DNA of 64,000 nt, taken from positions 27,136 to 91,135 of the forward strand of contig CALWJX010000004.1 of the NCBI GenBank assembly GCA_944381085.1. Direction: 5' to 3'. Shown here piece by piece: positions 12,227 to 52,506 of this stretch. This DNA is from an uncultured Clostridia bacterium (lineage in GTDB: Bacteria; Bacillota; Clostridia; Oscillospirales; CAG-272). A model generated the notes under the pieces. That model had not been told where the DNA came from. It saw only the letters and a list, made by a program, of their open reading frames with translations, and did not search any database. The position numbers and the translations under genes were made by a program. The stretch's first letter is position 1; the number at the start of each line of letters is the position of its first letter.

Positions 12227-12265
12227 TTTAGTATAAATTTTAGATTAAGGAAAGGAGTACCGGAT

Positions 12266-12871
12266 ATGAAAAAGAGTGTAATCACAGTTAGCCGCGAATT
12301 CGGAAGCGGCGGGAGGACCGTGGCAAAACTTGCCGCCGAAAAACTCGGATATGATTTTTACGACAACGAAATTATACTGAAAGTCGCGAAGGAGAGCGGT
12401 CTGTCACAGGAGATAGTCGAGAAATACGACGAATACGCTACTTATAAAAACAGCTTTCTTTATTCTATCGCAATGAACGCCGGAGCGGACGCCTACGGAG
12501 GCATGTCGTTTGCCAATCAGGTGCAGATTGCCCAGATCAAGATCATCAAGGACCTTGCCGAAAAAGGCAACTGCGTAATAGTGGGCAGAGGCGGGGACTA
12601 TATTCTCCGCGACAGGGATGACTGCCTTAACGTGTTTATACGCGCCGACATGGAATTCCGCAAGAACTGGGTGCTTTCGCACTATGGGGAAACCGACAAA
12701 AAGATCGAAAACCGGCTCAAGGACAAGGACGCCAGAAGAAAAGTGTTTTACCGCTCGTTCACTATGCGCGAATGGGGCATGTGCTCAAACTATCACCTCT
12801 CGCTTGACAGCGGCGTCATCGGCATAGAAAAGTGCGTCGATATAATCTGCGACCTGGCGCGCGGCAATTAA
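12266..12871 (+). CDS. cytidylate kinase-like family protein
   Basis: The N-terminus VITVSREFGSGGRTVAKLAAEKLGYDFYDNEII is typical of this family. Confidence 0.8.
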   Translation: MKKSVITVSREFGSGGRTVAKLAAEKLGYDFYDNEIILKVAKESGLSQEIVEKYDEYATYKNSFLYSIAMNAGADAYGGMSFANQVQIAQIKIIKDLAEKGNCVIVGRGGDYILRDRDDCLNVFIRADMEFRKNWVLSHYGETDKKIENRLKDKDARRKVFYRSFTMREWGMCSNYHLSLDSGVIGIEKCVDIICDLARGN

Positions 12872-12928
12872 AAAATCGGGTAAGTGTTAAAAAAATACGC
12901 ATTTTTCGTGAGTTTGCATTAAAAACGA

Positions 12929-12957
12929 TTGACAAACAAGCCAAAAGGTGATATAAT
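12929..12957 (+). promoter_or_regulatory. consensus SigA-type promoter for the ABC transporter operon
   Basis: TTGACA (12929-12934), a 17-nt spacer, then TATAAT (12952-12957). Confidence 0.65.
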
Positions 12958-13057
12958 AATTACACTTTAACTTATTAAAAAGAAAAATTGTTTCAGAGTA
13001 CCGCGATTACGCGGATATCCGACGATTCAATTGCCGAAAAATTCAAGGAGAAAAATC

Positions 13058-14029
13058 ATGAAACTGAAAAAAATAGCATCAATGGTTCTCGCCGTTGTAA
13101 CCGTAGCGGCAATCACGACTTCATTTGCTTCATGCAACAACAAAAACGACGATGTTTTTGTCGTGGGTATCTGTCAGCAGCAAACGCACGACGCGCTTGA
13201 CGCCGCGACCGAAGGCTTCAAGCAGGCGCTAATAGATAAGCTCGGCGAGGATAAAGTCGAGTTTGATTATCAGGACGGCGCCGGTGATACAAATACAATC
13301 ACCACGATTATAAATACGTTTGTATCCAAAAAGGTCGATCTTATTATGGCAAACGGTACAACCGCGCTTCAGAACGCCGCCAACGCCACGCTCGACATTC
13401 CGATTCTCGGCACTTCAATTACAGAGTACGGAGTAGCGCTTAATCTTGAAAACTTCAACGGCACGGTAGGCGGAAATGTTTCGGGAACAAGCGACCTTGC
13501 CCCGCTCACCGAGCAGGCGCAGATGATAATAGACCTGTTCCCCGACGCCAAAACCGTAGGTATGCTCTACTGCTCATCCGAGCCCAACTCAGAGTATCAG
13601 GTCAAGGTAGTAACCCAATATCTTACATCTAAGGGAATTACCTGCTCCGACTATAAATTTACAGATTCCAACGACGTATCTCTTGTGGCGGAAAAGGCAG
13701 CAAACGACTGCGACGTAATATATGTTCCCACCGACAACACGGTAGCCTCCTGCAAGGAAACCATAAACAGTGTGGTGCTCCCTATCGGTACCCCGATATT
13801 CGCGGGTGAAGAAGGCATCTGTGAGGGCTGCGGCGTCGCGACATTGTCCATAAGCTATTATCAGCTCGGATATAAGACCGGTGAAATGGCGGCACAGATT
13901 CTCACGGGTGAACAGAATATTTCGGAAATGCCTATACAGTATGATGAAAATCCGGTAAAGAAATACAACAAGGAAATAGCGGATGAACTCGGAATAACAA
14001 TTCCCGAGGGATACGAAGCAATAGAATGA
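13058..14029 (+). CDS. ABC transporter substrate-binding lipoprotein (PF04392/COG2984, TrpX-like)
   Basis: Start at ATG 13058 with an AAGGAG RBS. Lipobox TTSFASC. The pattern VVGICQQQTHDALDAATEGFKQAL...DLIMANGTTALQNAA...NVSGTSD matches this family. Confidence 0.85.
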   Translation: MKLKKIASMVLAVVTVAAITTSFASCNNKNDDVFVVGICQQQTHDALDAATEGFKQALIDKLGEDKVEFDYQDGAGDTNTITTIINTFVSKKVDLIMANGTTALQNAANATLDIPILGTSITEYGVALNLENFNGTVGGNVSGTSDLAPLTEQAQMIIDLFPDAKTVGMLYCSSEPNSEYQVKVVTQYLTSKGITCSDYKFTDSNDVSLVAEKAANDCDVIYVPTDNTVASCKETINSVVLPIGTPIFAGEEGICEGCGVATLSISYYQLGYKTGEMAAQILTGEQNISEMPIQYDENPVKKYNKEIADELGITIPEGYEAIE

Positions 14030-14124
14030 TTTGGAAAACTCGAATTGCGGGAGGTTCAAGCCTCCCGCAATTGCGGAAATTACGATTTTTAACATAAACG
14101 CAGAATTAAAATTGGGGGATAATT

Positions 14125-15024
14125 ATGGGATGGCTTAATGCTTTGCCGGGAGCCGCCGTACAGGGAATAATCTGGGGAATTATGGCTATCGGACTGTATA
14201 TTACATACAAGGTGCTTGACCTGGCGGACCTTACCGTAGACGGCTCTATCTGCACGGGAATGGCGGTTTGCGCGATGATGATGATATCGGGATACAACGT
14301 CTGGTTGGCTATGCTTGCGGCTTTCGCGGCGGGCTTGGCGGCCGGAATGATAACCGGTTTTTTTCATACTTTTTTCGGAATTCCGGCAATCCTTTCGGGA
14401 ATACTTACTCAGCTTATACTTTGGTCTGTGAATCTGAAAATTCTCGGAAGGGCAAATCAGGCTTTGCCCGCCCGTAATTACAACGTATTGGTAACGCTTC
14501 AGCGGGTAAACGAGTCAATGCTCGTCGTATTGGCGTTTGTAGTGGTAATCATAGCGTTGCTGTATTGGTTTTTCGGCACGCAGTTCGGCGCCTCAATACG
14601 TGCCACGGGATGCAACGAGCCGATGGCGCGCGCCCAAGGTATCAACACTCAATTTACCAAAGTGTTCGGTCTGGCGCTTTCAAACGGATTTGTAGCCCTC
14701 GCGGGCGCGCTGCTCGCTCAGTATTCGGGCAAAGCCGATATAAATGACGGACGCGGCGCGATTGTTGTCGGACTCGCGGCAATAATTATAGGAGAAGCTA
14801 TTTTTTCCAGGATCTCAAGCAATTTTATTGTCAGACTGCTCGGCGTTGTTATCGGAGGAATAATTTATTACGCGGTATATTCAACGGTAATCAACCTCGG
14901 GTTCGACACCGACCTGTTAAAAGCGCTGTCAGCGCTTGTGGTAGCCGTTTTCCTCGGAATACCCTATCTCAAGAGAAAATATTTCAAACGCCCGGCAAAA
15001 AAGGGGGACAGGAAAAATGCTTGA
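14125..15024 (+). CDS. ABC transporter permease (COG4120-type)
   Basis: Multi-pass membrane protein directly downstream of the binding protein. It overlaps the ATPase gene by 8 nt. Confidence 0.85.
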   Translation: MGWLNALPGAAVQGIIWGIMAIGLYITYKVLDLADLTVDGSICTGMAVCAMMMISGYNVWLAMLAAFAAGLAAGMITGFFHTFFGIPAILSGILTQLILWSVNLKILGRANQALPARNYNVLVTLQRVNESMLVVLAFVVVIIALLYWFFGTQFGASIRATGCNEPMARAQGINTQFTKVFGLALSNGFVALAGALLAQYSGKADINDGRGAIVVGLAAIIIGEAIFSRISSNFIVRLLGVVIGGIIYYAVYSTVINLGFDTDLLKALSALVVAVFLGIPYLKRKYFKRPAKKGDRKNA

Positions 15025-15811
15025 ACTAAAAAATATCTCAAAAACCTTCAACGCCGGGACGGTAAATGAAAAGCAAGCCATAGACAATTTATCCCTTACG
15101 CTCAACGACGGCGATTTTGTTACGGTTATAGGCGGAAACGGCGCGGGCAAATCCACAATGCTTAATCTTATAGCCGGGGTGTATGAAGTCGATTCCGGGA
15201 ATATCATTATCGACGGCAACGATATCACCAAGCTTCCCGAACACAAACGCGCGAAATTTATCGGACGTGTGTTTCAGGACCCGAGAATGGGTACGGCGTC
15301 GGATATGTGGGTAGAAGAAAATCTGGCAATCGCCGATTTAAGGGGAAAAAGACGCGGACTGAAATGGTCAATATCGGGAAAAGACCGCGAAAGATACAGA
15401 AAAATGCTCTCCGAACTTGATTTGGGGCTTGAAAACAGGCTGTCAACCAAAATGGGACTGTTATCGGGAGGACAGCGCCAGGCGGTTACATTGATGATGG
15501 CGACGATGGAAAAGCCGGATCTTTTGCTGCTTGACGAGCACACCGCCGCGCTTGACCCAAAAACCGCGGCAAAGGTACTCGAAATAACCGACAGACTTGT
15601 AAAGGAGCATTCTCTTACCGCGCTGATGGTCACACATAACATGAAAGACGCCATAACACACGGCAACCGGCTTATCATGATGAATGACGGAAAAATTATA
15701 ATCGACGTGAGCGGAGATGAAAAAAAGAACCTCACCGTGGAATTGCTGCTTGCCGAGTTTGCAAAGCTCAGCGGCACCGAATTTACCAATGACAGGACCC
15801 TGCTCTCTTAA
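15017..15811 (+). CDS. ABC transporter ATP-binding protein (COG1101-type)
   Basis: Walker A GGNGAGKST, signature LSGGQRQ, Walker B LLLLDEHTAALD. Confidence 0.9.
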   Translation: MLELKNISKTFNAGTVNEKQAIDNLSLTLNDGDFVTVIGGNGAGKSTMLNLIAGVYEVDSGNIIIDGNDITKLPEHKRAKFIGRVFQDPRMGTASDMWVEENLAIADLRGKRRGLKWSISGKDRERYRKMLSELDLGLENRLSTKMGLLSGGQRQAVTLMMATMEKPDLLLLDEHTAALDPKTAAKVLEITDRLVKEHSLTALMVTHNMKDAITHGNRLIMMNDGKIIIDVSGDEKKNLTVELLLAEFAKLSGTEFTNDRTLLS

Positions 15812-15873
15812 TTTCATTAAAATGGGAACGGATAAAACCGAATTTTTACTTACTCTCCCGCCGCATTGAAAAA

Positions 15874-15911
15874 ATCACCCGTTATCTGTAAAAGACAACG
15901 GGTGATTTTTT
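15874..15911. terminator. bidirectional Rho-independent terminator between convergent genes
   Basis: ATCACCCGTT (15874-15883) pairs with AACGGGTGAT (15897-15906). An A-run lies upstream and TTTTT downstream. Confidence 0.75.
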
Positions 15912-16039
15912 ATGTTGACGAAAGAACAAAAATATTTCCCGGGCTTAAAGCAATAATATGGCAAATAATAAAAAATCTGTCCGGCCCCTTGAAATCTCAC
16001 GGGCGGAGAAACCCCGGGCAATCCTATTCTGTCTGCCTT

Positions 16040-17008
16040 CTATTCGGTTGTTGACTCCGATTCCGCCATACGCTTGACATACGGAACGACGTCCACCGAG
16101 CGTGAGGCAAGTCTGTCCAGAGATATTTTCTCTATCCTCTCATCCAAAGGCACATTGCCCTCTTTGATGATATACATATCCGATCTTCCGATTTCAGGAT
16201 TGTTAACAATATAAACACATACAAATACATTATTAACCCTCATATAGTCATCCAAAAACTCAAAAATTTCAGGCAATCTCTTTTCAATCATGCGGCTTCG
16301 CCTGATATTTGTCTGTACGCATGAGGAAATCCCCGCCTTTCCTGAAAATTCATATCTTTTATATCCCGCCATCGCAAGCTCCCGCGCGGAATCCTCCGGG
16401 TCTAACAGACAATACCCCCATTCGGTAAGACAGTCTCTGTCCAGAGAATATTTTTCAATACAGTACTCGATCCATTCCCTGTCGTTTTGATTAAATTTCG
16501 AGCTTTTACAGGATTGCGTATCAAAATAAACACTGTACAGCGCCATAATCTCGCTTTCACTGTCATCTGAACCTATCGAGCACATCATGTCAAATATCAT
16601 TTTTCCGCAGGAGGAAGCTTTTTCAACAAAGCTGTAATTAAAATCAGGCTCCGGCGGCGTGGTATGATGATCTATACATCCCAATACGCGATTTTTATAA
16701 AATGTCTTATGGTGGTCTACAAGCAGCAAAACATCGCCCTCATCAAATCCCCCAAAGTTCATCACGTCTAAAATTCCAAGCTTTTGTGCGATTTTCGCGG
16801 TAACACTGTCCGGGCGTGTGGCAAATTTTATTTCGGCAATTATATCTTTCTTTGAAAGCAGCCGCAAAAGCAGCCAAGAAGATATCAGACTGTCCGAATC
16901 CGGCTTGTCATGTCCTGTCACGACAAGCCGAGTGCCCGAAAAATAAGTATCTTTACACAGCTTTAAAAGCTTTCTCGTTTTTTCCGCGATACTTTCATTG
17001 TTTTTCAT
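16040..17008 (-). CDS. DHH family phosphoesterase
   Basis: Motifs TGHDKPDSDSL, LLVDHHK and CIDHH follow the DHH order. It diverges from family II pyrophosphatase, so the substrate is not inferable. Confidence 0.7.
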   Translation of the reverse strand: MKNNESIAEKTRKLLKLCKDTYFSGTRLVVTGHDKPDSDSLISSWLLLRLLSKKDIIAEIKFATRPDSVTAKIAQKLGILDVMNFGGFDEGDVLLLVDHHKTFYKNRVLGCIDHHTTPPEPDFNYSFVEKASSCGKMIFDMMCSIGSDDSESEIMALYSVYFDTQSCKSSKFNQNDREWIEYCIEKYSLDRDCLTEWGYCLLDPEDSARELAMAGYKRYEFSGKAGISSCVQTNIRRSRMIEKRLPEIFEFLDDYMRVNNVFVCVYIVNNPEIGRSDMYIIKEGNVPLDERIEKISLDRLASRSVDVVPYVKRMAESESTTE

Positions 17009-48812: not shown

Positions 48813-48918
48813 TCAGACATTCCCCCGTCCAAACTTTCGCTTTCTGTTCCTTATTATTATATCAAATTTATAACTTTTTGTCAATATTTTTGAAAAGACG
48901 GAATATTTAATCTTTTAT

Positions 48919-48950
48919 TAAAAAGCCCGCCAATGTATATTTAATGGCGG
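48919..48950 (-). terminator. Rho-independent terminator at the distal end of the AT-rich islet
   Basis: On the minus strand, CCGCCA pairs with TGGCGG (48945-48950 with 48927-48932), followed by GCTTTTT. Confidence 0.55.
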
Positions 48951-49050
48951 CATCGTACGGATACCGCCATGACCACTACCTAATAGTCTTTGCCAATTGC
49001 CTTGATTTAGAATACATTGGATAAATCATATGTTTTGGCATTAATATATA

Positions 49051-49698
49051 TCAGTCACATTGTGAAACCAGTTTTTGATAAAATTCTTTGTTCATATCAA
49101 TTTCCAATATTCTCTCATTAAAGAAATTCCTTGGTTCTATAAGTTCTGAAGTACTTATATCTGTTTTGTTATCAAATGTACTTTTAACATTTTCGCAAGC
49201 TTTCCGAATATATTGTTTTTTTAATTCTTGATCTGCATATCTCGATAATTCCATATAATTCATAACAAATTGTGGACCTTGTATAATCGATTGTTTTAAT
49301 AATGCAATTGCTTCATTTAAATTACCGCCTTTTTCAATAATATATCTCGCTTTAATAAAACATGCAACCGATAAACTCTCATCTTTTAATATCGGCATGT
49401 TATTATTTATTAACGAAATAAAAAATGAAATATTTTTATATCTGACTGATTCGAATGCAGTTAAGGCTATAAATGCACCAATAAGTAAATTAAATTTATT
49501 AAAAGAATATATATATCCTTTCAACAATTCTGCGGCACTTTCCCAATCTTCAACCGGAGCAAGTGTTTGTATAATTGCTAATCTAATCAATTTTTCCTCG
49601 TCCGATAATAACGGAGATTTCAGTACATTGCTTTGATATTCATATAATTCATGACTTTCATCTTTTGTTATCAGAAAAGGCATTTTCGAAAAATCCAT
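49051..49698 (-). CDS. hypothetical all-helical protein (possibly TPR-like) in the AT-rich islet
   Basis: A 215-aa ORF with helix-rich composition. I recognise no family. It is the last gene of the toxin-associated islet. Confidence 0.5.
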   Translation of the reverse strand: MDFSKMPFLITKDESHELYEYQSNVLKSPLLSDEEKLIRLAIIQTLAPVEDWESAAELLKGYIYSFNKFNLLIGAFIALTAFESVRYKNISFFISLINNNMPILKDESLSVACFIKARYIIEKGGNLNEAIALLKQSIIQGPQFVMNYMELSRYADQELKKQYIRKACENVKSTFDNKTDISTSELIEPRNFFNERILEIDMNKEFYQKLVSQCD

Positions 49699-49723
49699 AG
49701 TATCTCTCCGTTTAATGAATTAG

Positions 49724-50359
49724 TTATTTCCGACTAATTATATTTACTTCGGATAATTTTGATATGGAAGGAAAGTAATATTCTTCAAAACCATAATTAT
49801 TTTCTGATAATGTTTCTCTGATACGTAGATATTGTTCTACATCATTCACACAACCAAATAAATAATTATTATTCAACTTGGAAATAACATCACAGAATAG
49901 TTTTTCTTCCCCATACATATCTTCATAAGAACAAGAAGTTTGCATATTGGTATCTATATACTCATATCCTAAAAAGACACGAATTTCATCTCCTGATGTA
50001 CTGCCGGATATAGTATGTCTATTCGTGGATTCAATAGCAAGAATACGAATAGGAATATCTAATTTATAACAATGAGTTATGTATTGCTTCAATAGTTTCA
50101 TATCTGTTATTGTCCATAAACCATATCTGGAACTATTCAACCAACGTGTAGTGACTTCTTGTGTTAGCTTAACAGATATCTCATCTGTATTATTTTCCAA
50201 TGGCCATGAAATACAACTATCAATACCTTTATAGTGTGTCGATTTAATATGTACAGCATCTATATATAAAGGGTATTTTATTTGCTGAACAACATAACCG
50301 TTATTATAAAATATATTTTCGACTTTGTTGTATACTGCATCATCAATTTCTGTATGCAT
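49724..50359 (-). CDS. hypothetical protein in the AT-rich islet
   Basis: The likely start is ATG 50359 (MHTEIDD), preceded by AGGAGAG. I recognise no family. Confidence 0.5.
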   Translation of the reverse strand: MHTEIDDAVYNKVENIFYNNGYVVQQIKYPLYIDAVHIKSTHYKGIDSCISWPLENNTDEISVKLTQEVTTRWLNSSRYGLWTITDMKLLKQYITHCYKLDIPIRILAIESTNRHTISGSTSGDEIRVFLGYEYIDTNMQTSCSYEDMYGEEKLFCDVISKLNNNYLFGCVNDVEQYLRIRETLSENNYGFEEYYFPSISKLSEVNIISRK

Positions 50360-50554
50360 GTTTTCTACCTCTCCTAAATCTATATAAAATATGTACATAC
50401 GCGAAGGGTGCCTTGCTCCTGCCCTGCTAAACATTTCAAAATTTACATGACCGGCAAGTCCATCGTATCCTTAATAACACCGTTAATCATTTGAATTTTA
50501 GCCGGACATACTTTGAGCAAATACGTCCGGCTCTTCAAATACTGTTATTAAGTT

Positions 50555-50941
50555 TTATAATAACATCTTTGTATCATACAAATTGAGTTGATCTGTCATT
50601 ATCATCACATAATTATTTTTAAGCTTATAAAACCGATCATCCTCAACAGTTTCAATTAGAAAAATTGTACCTCCTATAGTCATACATAATACCTTATCTT
50701 CATAAGAATCAATTTTTCCGATTATATATGTCTGTTCATCAATTGAATAAATCTCAGGGTGTAATTGATTACTTATACTTATTTCCGAATATGTAAATTT
50801 GTAAGGTATATCAAATTCGACATCGTACTGCTTTCCTGTTATTGGAGATTCAGAATTATTCCAAAACGCATTGAATTCTCCATAATCCGAGGCTACTAAA
50901 ATTCGACTTTCTTCTATCAATGATAAAATTTGAATTTTCAT
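50555..50941 (-). CDS. hypothetical protein; candidate immunity protein for the upstream toxin tail
   Basis: A 128-aa ORF starting 17 nt after the toxin-fragment stop, on the same strand. This is the classic immunity-gene position. I recognise no family. Confidence 0.5.
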   Translation of the reverse strand: MKIQILSLIEESRILVASDYGEFNAFWNNSESPITGKQYDVEFDIPYKFTYSEISISNQLHPEIYSIDEQTYIIGKIDSYEDKVLCMTIGGTIFLIETVEDDRFYKLKNNYVMIMTDQLNLYDTKMLL

Positions 50942-50958
50942 TATAAAACAGACCTCTT

Positions 50959-51549
50959 TTATTTCAAGCGTTCATATACGGTACAAGTTGATGGATTGTA
51001 ATCCCATACTTCGAAATGAAAATGAGCTTTAGATGTTCCAATTGAATTCATCTCATGTCTTCCAAATCTAATACTTTTTGTTCCATCGGCAGAAAAAATT
51101 CGATCCATGTCTATTTTACCTGTAAATTTATTTATATTTGTTTGATTTGGTCCTAAATAGTCATTCCAAACATCAACAGTATCACTTACTTTTATTTGAC
51201 TTGCCTTTTTCACTTCAGGAAGTGCAACAATATCTATACACTTATTATGTACCAGTATCTCATTCTCACCTACATAATAAGTATGAAAATCCTCAACCTC
51301 GAAGTTGTAAGTAACAACCGGAGATTCCAATATTTCATGTTGTACCTGTTCAAGCACTACATGCTCACCGTTGAGCATAACAAGGATGTCACCCGCACGA
51401 AGATTACCGGCAAGCACCCAGCCCTTGTCCGCTACATAGTACGGATGTGTCTGTGTTGAGGTTATTTCTTCCCCGTTGACTGTTATTTTGGTAACATGGG
51501 TGGTCTCATTTACAAATGTCTTTACTACCTGTTTTAGTCCGACCTCGCC
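50959..51549 (-). pseudogene. 5'-truncated (orphan) polymorphic-toxin C-terminal cassette: the C-terminal half of a PT-HINT domain plus an unassigned tail of about 95 aa
   Basis: My translation is open from 51549: GEVGLKQVVKTFVNETTHVTKITVNGEEITSTQTHPYYVADKGWVLAGNLRAGDILVMLNGEHVVLEQVQHEILESPVVTYNFEVEDFHTYYVGENEILVHNKC. The tail follows (..RFGRHEMNSIGTSKAHFHFEVWDYNP..). There is no ATG or N-terminal domain, and the frame is bounded upstream by the stop codon of the neighbouring gene. Confidence 0.7.
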
Positions 51550-52506
51550 TTATCGGTCAAAAGTATGTATACGGCTGTTCAGAAGCTGTGCTATTTTTTC
51601 ATCGGAAATATTTTTCTTCATAAAGTATATTTTACCCGCCTCATCCTCAACAAACCTTGTGGCGTCTTCATTAGGAAACTTTTTCTCACGGTAAAACTCA
51701 AGTCTGCCGGGCTTTGTAAGCGAATAAACGTCTCCCTCGCCTTCGCACGCGAACTGCACGGCGGTCAGATCAAAGCTCGCGTTGACGCACTTTACTTCTC
51801 TGTCCGCGGTATAGAGCTGATAGGATCTATATATCGGATTGGACTGCATATCATCGGACTCTTTGTAACCCGTCACTATGGTTTCGCCCAACGCCGCGTC
51901 GGACACATAAATATTATGAGGAAATTTTTCAAAAAACACTTTTGACGCCTTATAATCGCAGACCACATTAAACTCTCTGCCGCTCGGTAGCCTTGCCGCC
52001 ATTGAAACCGCGCAATGCACCTTGCGTCTCACAAGTTCCGATCCCGTGAGGCCGCTATATTTATCGGGTTTGCTTTCAAGCAGCGCCGCCACAGTATTGA
52101 ACATTCCTATAGTAACAATAATCACACTGTCATCCTCCGCCTCGGAAAGCAGCTTTCTGTAAAATGACACATGAGGAAGCACTTCAAAAGTGCCGCTTCT
52201 ATACTTCTCGCTGAAATTTTCCGCAATAAACTTATTGTATTTGAGACAGCTGTCATCGTCGTAAAAACCGGGTTTCGAATATATCCCCATGGGAATATTC
52301 TCATATCCGCAATAATCGCATATCACGTCCGCGGTGACGCTTCCGTAGATATTGGAGGTGCAGTTGCAGATTCCCGCGACCTCAAAACCAAGCTCCTTCG
52401 CGTATGACAAAAGCACCGCTATGGCCCCGACGTCATCGCAGTCAGGTCCGATATCGGTATCAAGTATTACTTTTCGTTTTTTTGTCTTCAATGATTCGTA
52501 TAGCAT
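51550..52506 (-). CDS. nucleoside hydrolase family protein
   Basis: The N-terminal aspartate cluster VILDTDIGPDCDDVGAIAVLL is typical of IUNH-like hydrolases. The likely start is ATG 52506 (MLYESLK), preceded by AGGAGGG. Confidence 0.7.
   Translation of the reverse strand: MLYESLKTKKRKVILDTDIGPDCDDVGAIAVLLSYAKELGFEVAGICNCTSNIYGSVTADVICDYCGYENIPMGIYSKPGFYDDDSCLKYNKFIAENFSEKYRSGTFEVLPHVSFYRKLLSEAEDDSVIIVTIGMFNTVAALLESKPDKYSGLTGSELVRRKVHCAVSMAARLPSGREFNVVCDYKASKVFFEKFPHNIYVSDAALGETIVTGYKESDDMQSNPIYRSYQLYTADREVKCVNASFDLTAVQFACEGEGDVYSLTKPGRLEFYREKKFPNEDATRFVEDEAGKIYFMKKNISDEKIAQLLNSRIHTFDR

Follow-up and report, generated by a model that had tools for sequence, protein, structure and literature searches.

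How did the remains of an interbacterial toxin come to lie between two housekeeping genes, and are they of any use there? The question is raised by a stretch of 64,000 nucleotides from an uncultured Clostridia bacterium (contig CALWJX010000004.1; the stretch at its full length is referred to as the window), in which an islet of 2.6 kb (about 48926–51549) lies between a nucleoside-hydrolase gene and an AP_endonuc_2-family gene; both flanks are housekeeping genes, and the gene order nearby is sepF-ylmH-ileS-lspA-rluD. The islet is probably a decayed orphan module that was copied from an Rhs-type polymorphic-toxin locus and inserted here by illegitimate recombination. The evidence consists of a truncated Hint domain with a damaged toxin tail, an intact immunity gene directly downstream, and alternative alleles of the same site, one of which is empty.

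Directly after the hydrolase stop codon (TAA, 51550–51552) the minus strand is open for 196 codons, from 51549 to a TAA at 50959–50961, as a preliminary description of this DNA had stated, together with the peptides it quoted. Residues 1–102 of this frame (51244–51549, minus strand) match the PT-HINT profile PF07591 (76.9 bits, E 2.3e-21; cut-off 27.7 bits), which places the Hint identity proposed earlier above the gathering score. The match covers profile positions 28–136 of 137, so that the N-terminal ~27 positions are absent; among them is the Cys1 nucleophile block, which reads DCFVAGT in the relatives P0004 and L097, and the module is therefore incomplete. The C-terminus of the Hint domain (ILVHN-KC) is kept, and the sequence beyond it varies between the cassettes of the window, L001 and L097. 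The 5′ end of the frame has no start codon, as reported, although the internal GTG at 51417 is not the only candidate, since the frame also contains ATGs, one of them at 51378; none of these codons has an obvious Shine-Dalgarno sequence, and gene callers predict a product of 152 amino acids (aa) from the frame. The fragment contains no RHS/YD repeats, Rhs core or trafficking domain, and no full-length Rhs/YD gene or second Hint copy was found within 64 kb, the search for a parent rhs gene having covered the window.

Relatives of the fragment indicate where it came from. The locus L096 is 95% identical at the nucleotide level from 51556 onward. It encodes a longer orphan (P0004), in which the PT-HINT domain is complete and the tail intact, and the immunity gene of the window is present behind it as well. 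In L001, an 87-aa copy of the tail is followed by a 127-aa open reading frame (ORF) that is 29% identical to the 128-aa ORF of the islet (ORF128), then by a 422-aa orphan made up of the end of an Rhs core, a linker, a PT-HINT domain (77% identical in amino acids to that of the window) and a different tail, and then by further orphans. L097 and L102 encode large proteins with RHS_repeat and PT-HINT domains, the latter closely similar to the Hint of the window. Because RHS/YD sequence and a second Hint are both missing from the window, while the Hints of its relatives sit on RHS-repeat proteins, the fragment is read from sequence as an orphan of an Rhs-type polymorphic toxin, the window holding a derivative and not a member gene. 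The earlier suggestion of an orphan PT-HINT/C-terminal toxin module is upheld by the same observations, namely a fragment without Hint N-terminus, repeats or trafficking domain that nevertheless matches L096 and its complete PT-HINT at 95% nucleotide identity. As in other orphan modules, the 5′ part and the start codon are absent and homology to a conserved region of full-length genes is kept; within the window, however, the islet does not lie downstream of a full-length toxin gene.

The islet modules are also found in other orders in orphan arrays. The array in L188 consists of a copy of ORF215 (the 215-aa ORF of the islet), a different PT-HINT cassette and then a cassette of the window type, and the modules probably circulate in orphan arrays of related gut bacteria, probably Bacillota, a placement with which the gene order sepF-ylmH-ileS-lspA-rluD beside the islet agrees. 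Four independent assemblies (L008, L009, L012 and L013) start or break inside the Hint fragment (window 51267–51329), which suggests that the same metagenomes contain further, near-identical Hint segments, perhaps within full-length rhs genes or in arrays. The different orphan cassette of L188 (856–1821) comprises a truncated PT-HINT with a tail that contains the string EVHHVVEQ, possibly an HNH/xHH-type nuclease motif, and a 120-aa putative immunity gene. Helicase-like proteins of the DUF4011/AAA_11/AAA_12/MTES_1575 architecture are often met in defence islands, and one of 1,673 aa flanks the L001 array (12253–16264).

The tail that follows the Hint fragment (50959–51243, minus strand; ~92 aa plus stop) had been called unassignable. 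This holds insofar as no curated family includes it: the window tail has no Pfam or NCBIfam match at E ≤ 1, 47 members of its family have zero Pfam-A or NCBIfam matches, and searches of PDB sequences with the tail, both as a single sequence and as a profile, gave chance-level matches only. It does not hold in that the tail is a member of a widely distributed family, which comprises 275 clusters or more. When the tail sequence was used in a word-indexed search, only three fragmentary relatives came up, and a profile built from four tails and run against 1.84 billion cluster representatives (50% identity) found 275 proteins at E ≤ 1e-3, 194 of them at E ≤ 1e-10. Of the 83 members listed, all but P0139 have a family match that ends 0–12 residues from the C-terminus. 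The carriers include proteins of 2,000–4,000 aa with RHS repeats, PT-TG and PT-HINT domains, and also prePAAR/PAAR-Rhs proteins (type VI secretion system, T6SS) and T7SS_signal-Rhs proteins (type VII secretion system, T7SS); the 80 loci in species-representative genomes belong to Bacillota, Actinomycetota, Pseudomonadota, Planctomycetota, Chloroflexota and others. In complete E. coli genomes, the Rhs core of an enterobacterial member finds matches, but its tail and immunity gene do not, and a plasmid search returned one Streptomyces match with no annotated feature beneath it. The family may coincide with one of the unnamed toxin domains PT1-PT9 (bioRxiv 10.1101/2021.10.19.465003) or Tox1-Tox24 (PMC13483458); its motif strings were not found in the available supplement on recently reported unnamed toxin domains. 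P0139 (325 aa) contains the tail at 95–189 and immunity-like sequence at about 195–325, called as one protein, and this fusion may reflect read-through, a frameshift or a sequencing error.

The copy of the tail in the window is damaged. Relative to P0004 of L096, 15 nt have been deleted in frame near 50972, so that VRNFLQ is replaced by E and the ending '...TVYVRNFLQRLK' becomes '...TVYERLK'. The deletion takes V92–L96 and thereby five residues out of the last predicted strand, which is eleven residues long; the near-invariant N94 is among those lost. With this strand deletion, and without a start codon, the Hint N-terminus or delivery domains, the toxin copy of the window is most likely inactive.

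ORF128 (50555–50941, minus strand), in contrast to the toxin, is intact in every copy. It starts 17 nt past the stop codon of the tail, at the canonical immunity position that had been noted for it. A homologue of ~125–131 aa stands directly after the tail in 76 of the 80 genome loci, in several phyla, and also in L001; the spacing ranges from a 54-nt overlap to 35 nt downstream of the tail stop in most loci and is 75–131 nt in three. Mainly because of this adjacency across phyla, ORF128 is assigned as the cognate immunity protein of the tail family, in agreement with the initial proposal. The immunity family is acidic (median isoelectric point 4.4; below 6 in 67 of 67 members), and in most of its members no segment resembles a signal peptide or a transmembrane stretch (6 of 67 show a hydrophobic run among their first 40 residues, and 7 of 67 exceed the Kyte-Doolittle threshold), which points to a cytoplasmic target; ORF128 itself is acidic and without a signal peptide. 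Neither ORF128 nor the 67 family members match Pfam-A or NCBIfam, and a profile search of PDB sequences with the family was negative. In an Anaerolineae metagenome-assembled genome (L073, 8282–9630), the toxin tail is followed by a gene for a 448-aa protein, which the immunity profile matches at 5e-75; this protein appears to consist of several immunity domains fused in tandem.

Three alleles of the site place these changes in order. Allele A, the islet as described, is present in the window, L006, L008, L009, L012 and L013. Allele B (L007, L010 and L011) carries a 442-bp deletion (51460 to 51018) that removes most of the Hint-tail fragment and leaves ORF128 unchanged; in addition, the stretch from 50318 to 48970, that is, from codon 15 of the 211-aa ORF (ORF211) to a hairpin near the right end, is swapped for ~570 bp encoding an unrelated 199-aa protein (ORF199). 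The 15-nt deletion in the tail is also found in allele B and is therefore older than the split between A and B. Allele C (L108 and L109; conspecific, ~95–96% nucleotide identity) contains no islet, the hydrolase stop being followed by ~70 nt with a canonical terminator and then by the promoter of the AP_endonuc_2 gene. In DNA sequence, ORF128 does not differ between alleles A and B (100% identity), compared with 96.7% for the adjacent hydrolase gene, which suggests that the ORF128 block has spread recently between strain backgrounds, and does not amount to demonstrable purifying selection.

Identical junctions recur in independent assemblies from at least five samples and are therefore not an assembly artefact. 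At the left junction (51550–51556) homology to Rhs Hint cassettes sets in right beside the hydrolase stop, and at the right junction (48926–48943) homology to the empty site resumes at 48925, a short way upstream of the AP_endonuc_2 promoter, as determined by blastn and by alignment against L109. A three-way alignment of the window, the empty site and a donor-like cassette reveals junction microhomology of a few bases only; flanking direct or inverted repeats, a recombinase or integrase, and mobile-element signatures were looked for at the islet, and only short AT-rich chance repeats were found. Distant hydrolase homologues align to residues 316–318, and the insertion therefore left the hydrolase coding sequence intact, the 318-aa hydrolase of the window being, by this comparison, the native form; in other species, hydrolase homologues have no Hint or ORF128 neighbour. 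Horizontal acquisition, as initially proposed, is thus supported by an empty-site allele with its own terminator, a third allele with different cargo, and the presence of the modules in other array orders.

The islet contains two further ORFs, both of the sizes first reported. ORF215 (49051–49698, minus strand) has four relatives, of which P0157 and P0158 are 54–55% identical to it. Its homologues lie 17–31 nt after Rhs-PT-HINT proteins in L097, L098, L099, L101 and L102, which represent two distinct toxin proteins only, and the ~93-aa tail of these proteins matches Ntox35 (PF15534) with a score of 24.1 bits, the cut-off being 23.6; this family is counted among the BECR RNases (PMC9424270). 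The copy of ORF215 in the L188 array is 96% identical at the nucleotide level, and its homology to the window starts 8 nt before the ATG, so that ORF215 constitutes an independent module. From the position of its homologues, ORF215 is interpreted as an orphan immunity gene of Ntox35-type Rhs toxins, whose cognate toxin is absent from the window. In L097 (3–10770), the Rhs-PT-HINT-Ntox35 toxin and its ORF215-like gene stand beside relaxase, Toprim, DUF3848 and ArdC-like conjugation genes, which suggests that such Rhs toxin loci travel on conjugative elements.

ORF211 (49724–50359, minus strand) is an acidic ORFan. Like ORF215, it has no Pfam or NCBIfam match, and it has no PDB match; its match to the PADLOC model PDC-M14B is weak and sub-threshold (E 0.0016), and the PADLOC and PHROGs searches for defence or phage readings gave sub-threshold matches only, for both ORF211 and ORF199. 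From its position and composition it is possibly an immunity gene, ORF199 being likewise acidic. A role for ORF211 as the toxin cognate to ORF215 was considered and rejected, since the homologues of ORF215 pair with Ntox35 tails, which ORF211 does not resemble. The idea of stockpiled immunity genes is half supported: it holds for ORF215, with its homologues behind Rhs-PT-HINT-Ntox35 toxins, and finds no support in ORF211, which has no homologue at all. The first 14 codons of ORF211 and ORF199 and the spacer upstream are common to alleles A and B (~86% nucleotide identity; window 50318–50554, L007 10404–10628), after which, from a breakpoint 42 nt within the ORFs, the two are unrelated. The spacer itself (50360–50554, minus strand; GC 0.379) contains an inverted repeat, read from the letters and not folded, and an open stretch, GYDGLAGHVNFEMF..., which is in frame with ORF211 in the window and out of frame with ORF199 in allele B. 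This open stretch is probably non-coding, judging from its sequence; the possibility that it is a second toxin remnant found no support, given the frame mismatch in allele B and the lack of any homologue at the loci that were retrieved.

What the toxin did when intact may be approached through its predicted fold. AlphaFold2 with an alignment of 47 sequences gave a model with pLDDT 95.3 and pTM 0.85, consisting of b(5-8), b(12-18), a(20-31), b(49-51), b(57-60), a(63-67), b(75-84) and b(89-99). The residues E11, W27, L31, G32, R49, S52, R60, E65, H75, H77, E79 and W81 are invariant, and the near-invariant ones include D54, H64, N94 and R98. H75, H77, E79 and W81 alternate along one strand, as do S58/R60 and N94/R98 along neighbouring strands, and from this periodicity it is plausible that the conserved residues cluster on one face of the predicted sheet. 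A first model, built with a four-sequence alignment, was poor (pLDDT 61); its top match was the CdiA-CT structure 5T86 (E 0.058), which is classed as BECR (bioRxiv 10.64898/2026.05.10.723254), and this match did not recur with the better model.

The BECR core is described as a helix followed by four strands (PMC9424270), and the order of the model (b-b-a-b-b-a-b-b) is compatible with this as a sequence of elements along the chain. As in the BECR RNase toxins (Ntox35, colicin D/E5, RelE/HigB and the CdiA-CT 5T86; PMC9424270), the tail is ~95 aa long with a helix and then four strands, its invariant His, Glu and Arg lie on strands, and its partner is predicted to be acidic and cytoplasmic. The top Foldseek matches of the tail are BECR members, although none is significant (E 0.06–0.3), and structural similarity to BECR RNases is thus below significance. 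The model differs by two additions, a hairpin at the N-terminus and a short helix that separates strands 2 and 3, and the H-x-H-x-E motif on a strand of the tail was not found in the BECR descriptions consulted (PMC9424270; bioRxiv 10.64898/2026.05.10.723254). On these weak pointers to BECR-fold RNases, a metal-independent RNase would be a tentative guess for the modelled tail, rather less than an even prospect. It is doubtful, if conceivable, that the tail (~95 aa) and its acidic partner of ~127 aa form a hitherto unknown toxin/immunity superfamily, whose catalytic fold would resemble no solved structure and be neither BECR nor barnase-like, whose active site would be built from the H-x-H-x-E strand and two arginines, with an activity new to interbacterial toxins, and which would have been recruited by T6SS, T7SS and Bacillota Rhs proteins in at least five phyla.

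Taken together, the favoured account would run as follows. In intact relatives, an RHS/YD shell carries N-terminal secretion determinants (prePAAR/PAAR for the T6SS, a T7SS signal domain in actinobacteria); in close relatives, the shell is followed by a self-cleaving PT-HINT domain, a toxin of ~95 aa and, directly downstream, an acidic cytoplasmic immunity protein of ~127 aa. Such a module would have been inserted between the nucleoside-hydrolase and AP_endonuc_2-family genes, and what is left of it here is the final three quarters of the Hint, together with the tail and the gene for immunity. The intact toxin would probably attack cytoplasmic nucleic acid, with an active site formed by R49, R60, H64/E65, H75, H77 and E79 on one face of the β-sheet. 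ORF128 may protect against the cognate toxin when it is fired by neighbours, ORF215 may do so against Ntox35-type Rhs toxins, and both genes would perhaps be transcribed through read-through from the hydrolase gene. Read-through of this kind is plausible because the insertion displaced the hydrolase terminator.

Several results weigh against this account. There is no evident promoter for the immunity genes, promoter-like sites in the islet being not enriched over shuffled sequence, and, with zero differences in ORF128 between the alleles, the ratio of non-synonymous to synonymous substitution (dN/dS) is impossible to calculate, so that no substitution pattern speaks for selection on immunity. 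ORF211, which matches only itself among 5.8 billion clusters, is not accounted for by this reading. For the toxin, a Foldseek search of the PDB with the good model returned no significant match (the best, HigB2, at E 0.31 and probability 0.09), with TM ≤ 0.37 among the top 50 matches shown and TM ≤ 0.31 for the BECR matches; across the searches the best Foldseek probabilities were 0.09–0.44, with no RNase or other fold significant, and a search of the BFVD viral structures likewise found none that was significant. A likeness to barnase in the local motif INxxxGxxxxDRI[LF]...H was rejected at an hhalign probability of 0.3%.

The lack of clear promoters would equally suit a recently acquired, decaying fragment that confers no benefit, in which the immunity ORFs are intact only for lack of time. 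The existence of islet-free strains and the stepwise decay of the toxin, by 15 nt in both alleles and then by 442 bp in allele B, are compatible with such neutral debris, and the identity of ORF128 beside a diverged hydrolase gene fits recent spread better than long purifying selection. In both alleles, however, the deletions strike the toxin and leave the immunity ORF wholly intact, and the islet or the ORF128 block has apparently moved between diverged backgrounds, which suggests some advantage; orphan immunity genes in other systems are, moreover, reported to protect against non-self effectors (PMC10539506). Plain debris is, on this balance, somewhat unlikely, and a module retained at least in part for immunity is preferred.

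The islet might instead serve as a silent reservoir, its ~310 nt of Hint homology recombining into a full-length rhs gene elsewhere and so switching the toxin-immunity pair. Orphan Rhs modules that can be activated by recombination are described in PMC3967940, the Hint is 95% identical to that of other cassettes, and the four assemblies that break in the Hint suggest more copies in those communities. A role as a reservoir is also compatible with a stockpile of immunity genes. It is nevertheless distinctly unlikely, given that every copy seen at the locus carries the 15-nt deletion in a conserved strand, that allele B keeps only ~90 nt of Hint homology, and that no rhs gene lies within 64 kb, so that a crossover would rearrange the chromosome.

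Very improbable is an active, internal toxin-antitoxin-like pair, in which a short Hint-tail protein made from the GTG at 51417 or the ATG at 51378 would be restrained by ORF128. The predicted 152-aa product, the tight 17-nt spacing to ORF128 and a precedent reported for an orphan Rhs element of Salmonella (PMC7043789) are set against the lack of a convincing ribosome-binding site, the loss of five residues of the last strand, near-invariant N94 among them, and an allele B that has dropped nearly the whole toxin and yet keeps ORF128. That a full-length rhs gene once stood here and was eroded to its 3′ end is scarcely credible, for although rhs loci do erode and the fragment has the orientation of its neighbours, the Hint abuts the intact stop of a hydrolase with a native C-terminus (homologues reach residues 316–318), the allele without the islet carries a plain terminator and shows no vestige of rhs, and no YD or RHS sequence is present anywhere in the window.

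Rhs/WapA-type polymorphic toxins with PT-HINT pre-toxin domains (PF05593 with PF07591) are said to have been described by Zhang and colleagues in 2012. L097, L102, P0011 and P0067 conform to this type, with RHS repeats, PT-TG or a linker, PT-HINT, toxin and immunity gene; the window, in contrast, keeps the last ~75% of PT-HINT and no repeats, and its toxin domain falls outside the Pfam Ntox/Tox families. The acquired interbacterial defence clusters of Bacteroidales are stockpiles of orphan immunity genes. Like them, the immunity genes of the islet adjoin remnants and vary between strains, although they number two or three only and are accompanied by no integrase or mobile-element machinery.

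A closer counterpart is found in the orphan Rhs-CT/RhsI and CdiA-CT/CdiI modules of Enterobacteria, in which a 5′-truncated 3′ end of a toxin gene keeps a conserved upstream stretch and is followed by its immunity gene (PMC3150448, PMC3967940). The islet shares with these modules that it is AT-rich relative to its host, variable between strains, and arrayed in relatives (L001 and L188). It differs in that the homology kept is PT-HINT, and not the Rhs core or the PxxxxDPxGL region, in that it stands alone between housekeeping genes and not downstream of an rhs gene of full length, and in that its toxin copy is damaged; its host, moreover, appears to be a Bacillota-like uncultured gut bacterium. 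As with the immunities to the Serratia Rhs NADase, immunity has been kept without its cognate toxin (PMC10539506), ORF215 being one such case and ORF128 effectively another.

Orphan modules and retained immunity genes are thus already well known (PMC3150448, PMC3967940 and PMC10539506), and the islet adds to them a member whose toxin and immunity protein belong to an uncurated, widespread family pair. The locus is an ordinary product of the interbacterial arms race, yet it offers a clean natural series of three alleles at one site, with the toxin decaying and the immunity gene intact, as would be anticipated if, in a gut community in which matching Rhs toxins are fired by relatives, immunity were the only useful part. 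The larger value lies in the toxin/immunity pair, with at least 275 clusters, T6SS- and T7SS-linked Rhs carriers, a compact and confidently predicted fold and no Pfam or NCBIfam model, which makes it a ready target for biochemistry and for the definition of a new family.

The base composition of the islet is not uniform. GC content is 0.429 in the Hint fragment and falls from the toxin tail onward (tail 0.312, ORF128 0.279, ORF211 0.291, ORF215 0.278), compared with 0.454 and 0.456 in the two flanking genes and 0.435 in the whole window; the AT-rich block described at 49.0–51.55 kb is therefore real for the tail and the three ORFs (0.28–0.31) and does not extend to the Hint fragment.

The right end of the variable region is marked by an 11-bp hairpin (48944–48970, minus strand), common to alleles A, B and L188, which may act as a transcription stop. 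A folded stretch of 79 nt has a minimum free energy of -24.3 kcal/mol (z -3.07), and a T-run follows ~20 nt later; the hairpin fails the criteria of the terminator scan, which found no terminator at 48919–48950, and the terminator originally placed there is not a canonical intrinsic one. An Rfam scan of the whole window gave zero matches. The promoter of the AP_endonuc_2 gene (48856–48884) matches 12 of 12 consensus positions.

On the other side of the islet, the nucleoside hydrolase (51550–52506) scores just under the Pfam gathering threshold for IU_nuc_hydro (33.8 against 34.2 bits) and is, judged from this score, a divergent member of that family. In L108 and L109 (around 1420–1543), a 64-nt deletion in the hydrolase gene, corresponding to window 51597–51660, causes a frameshift, and the protein ends in '...PNEDAK', about 36 aa short.

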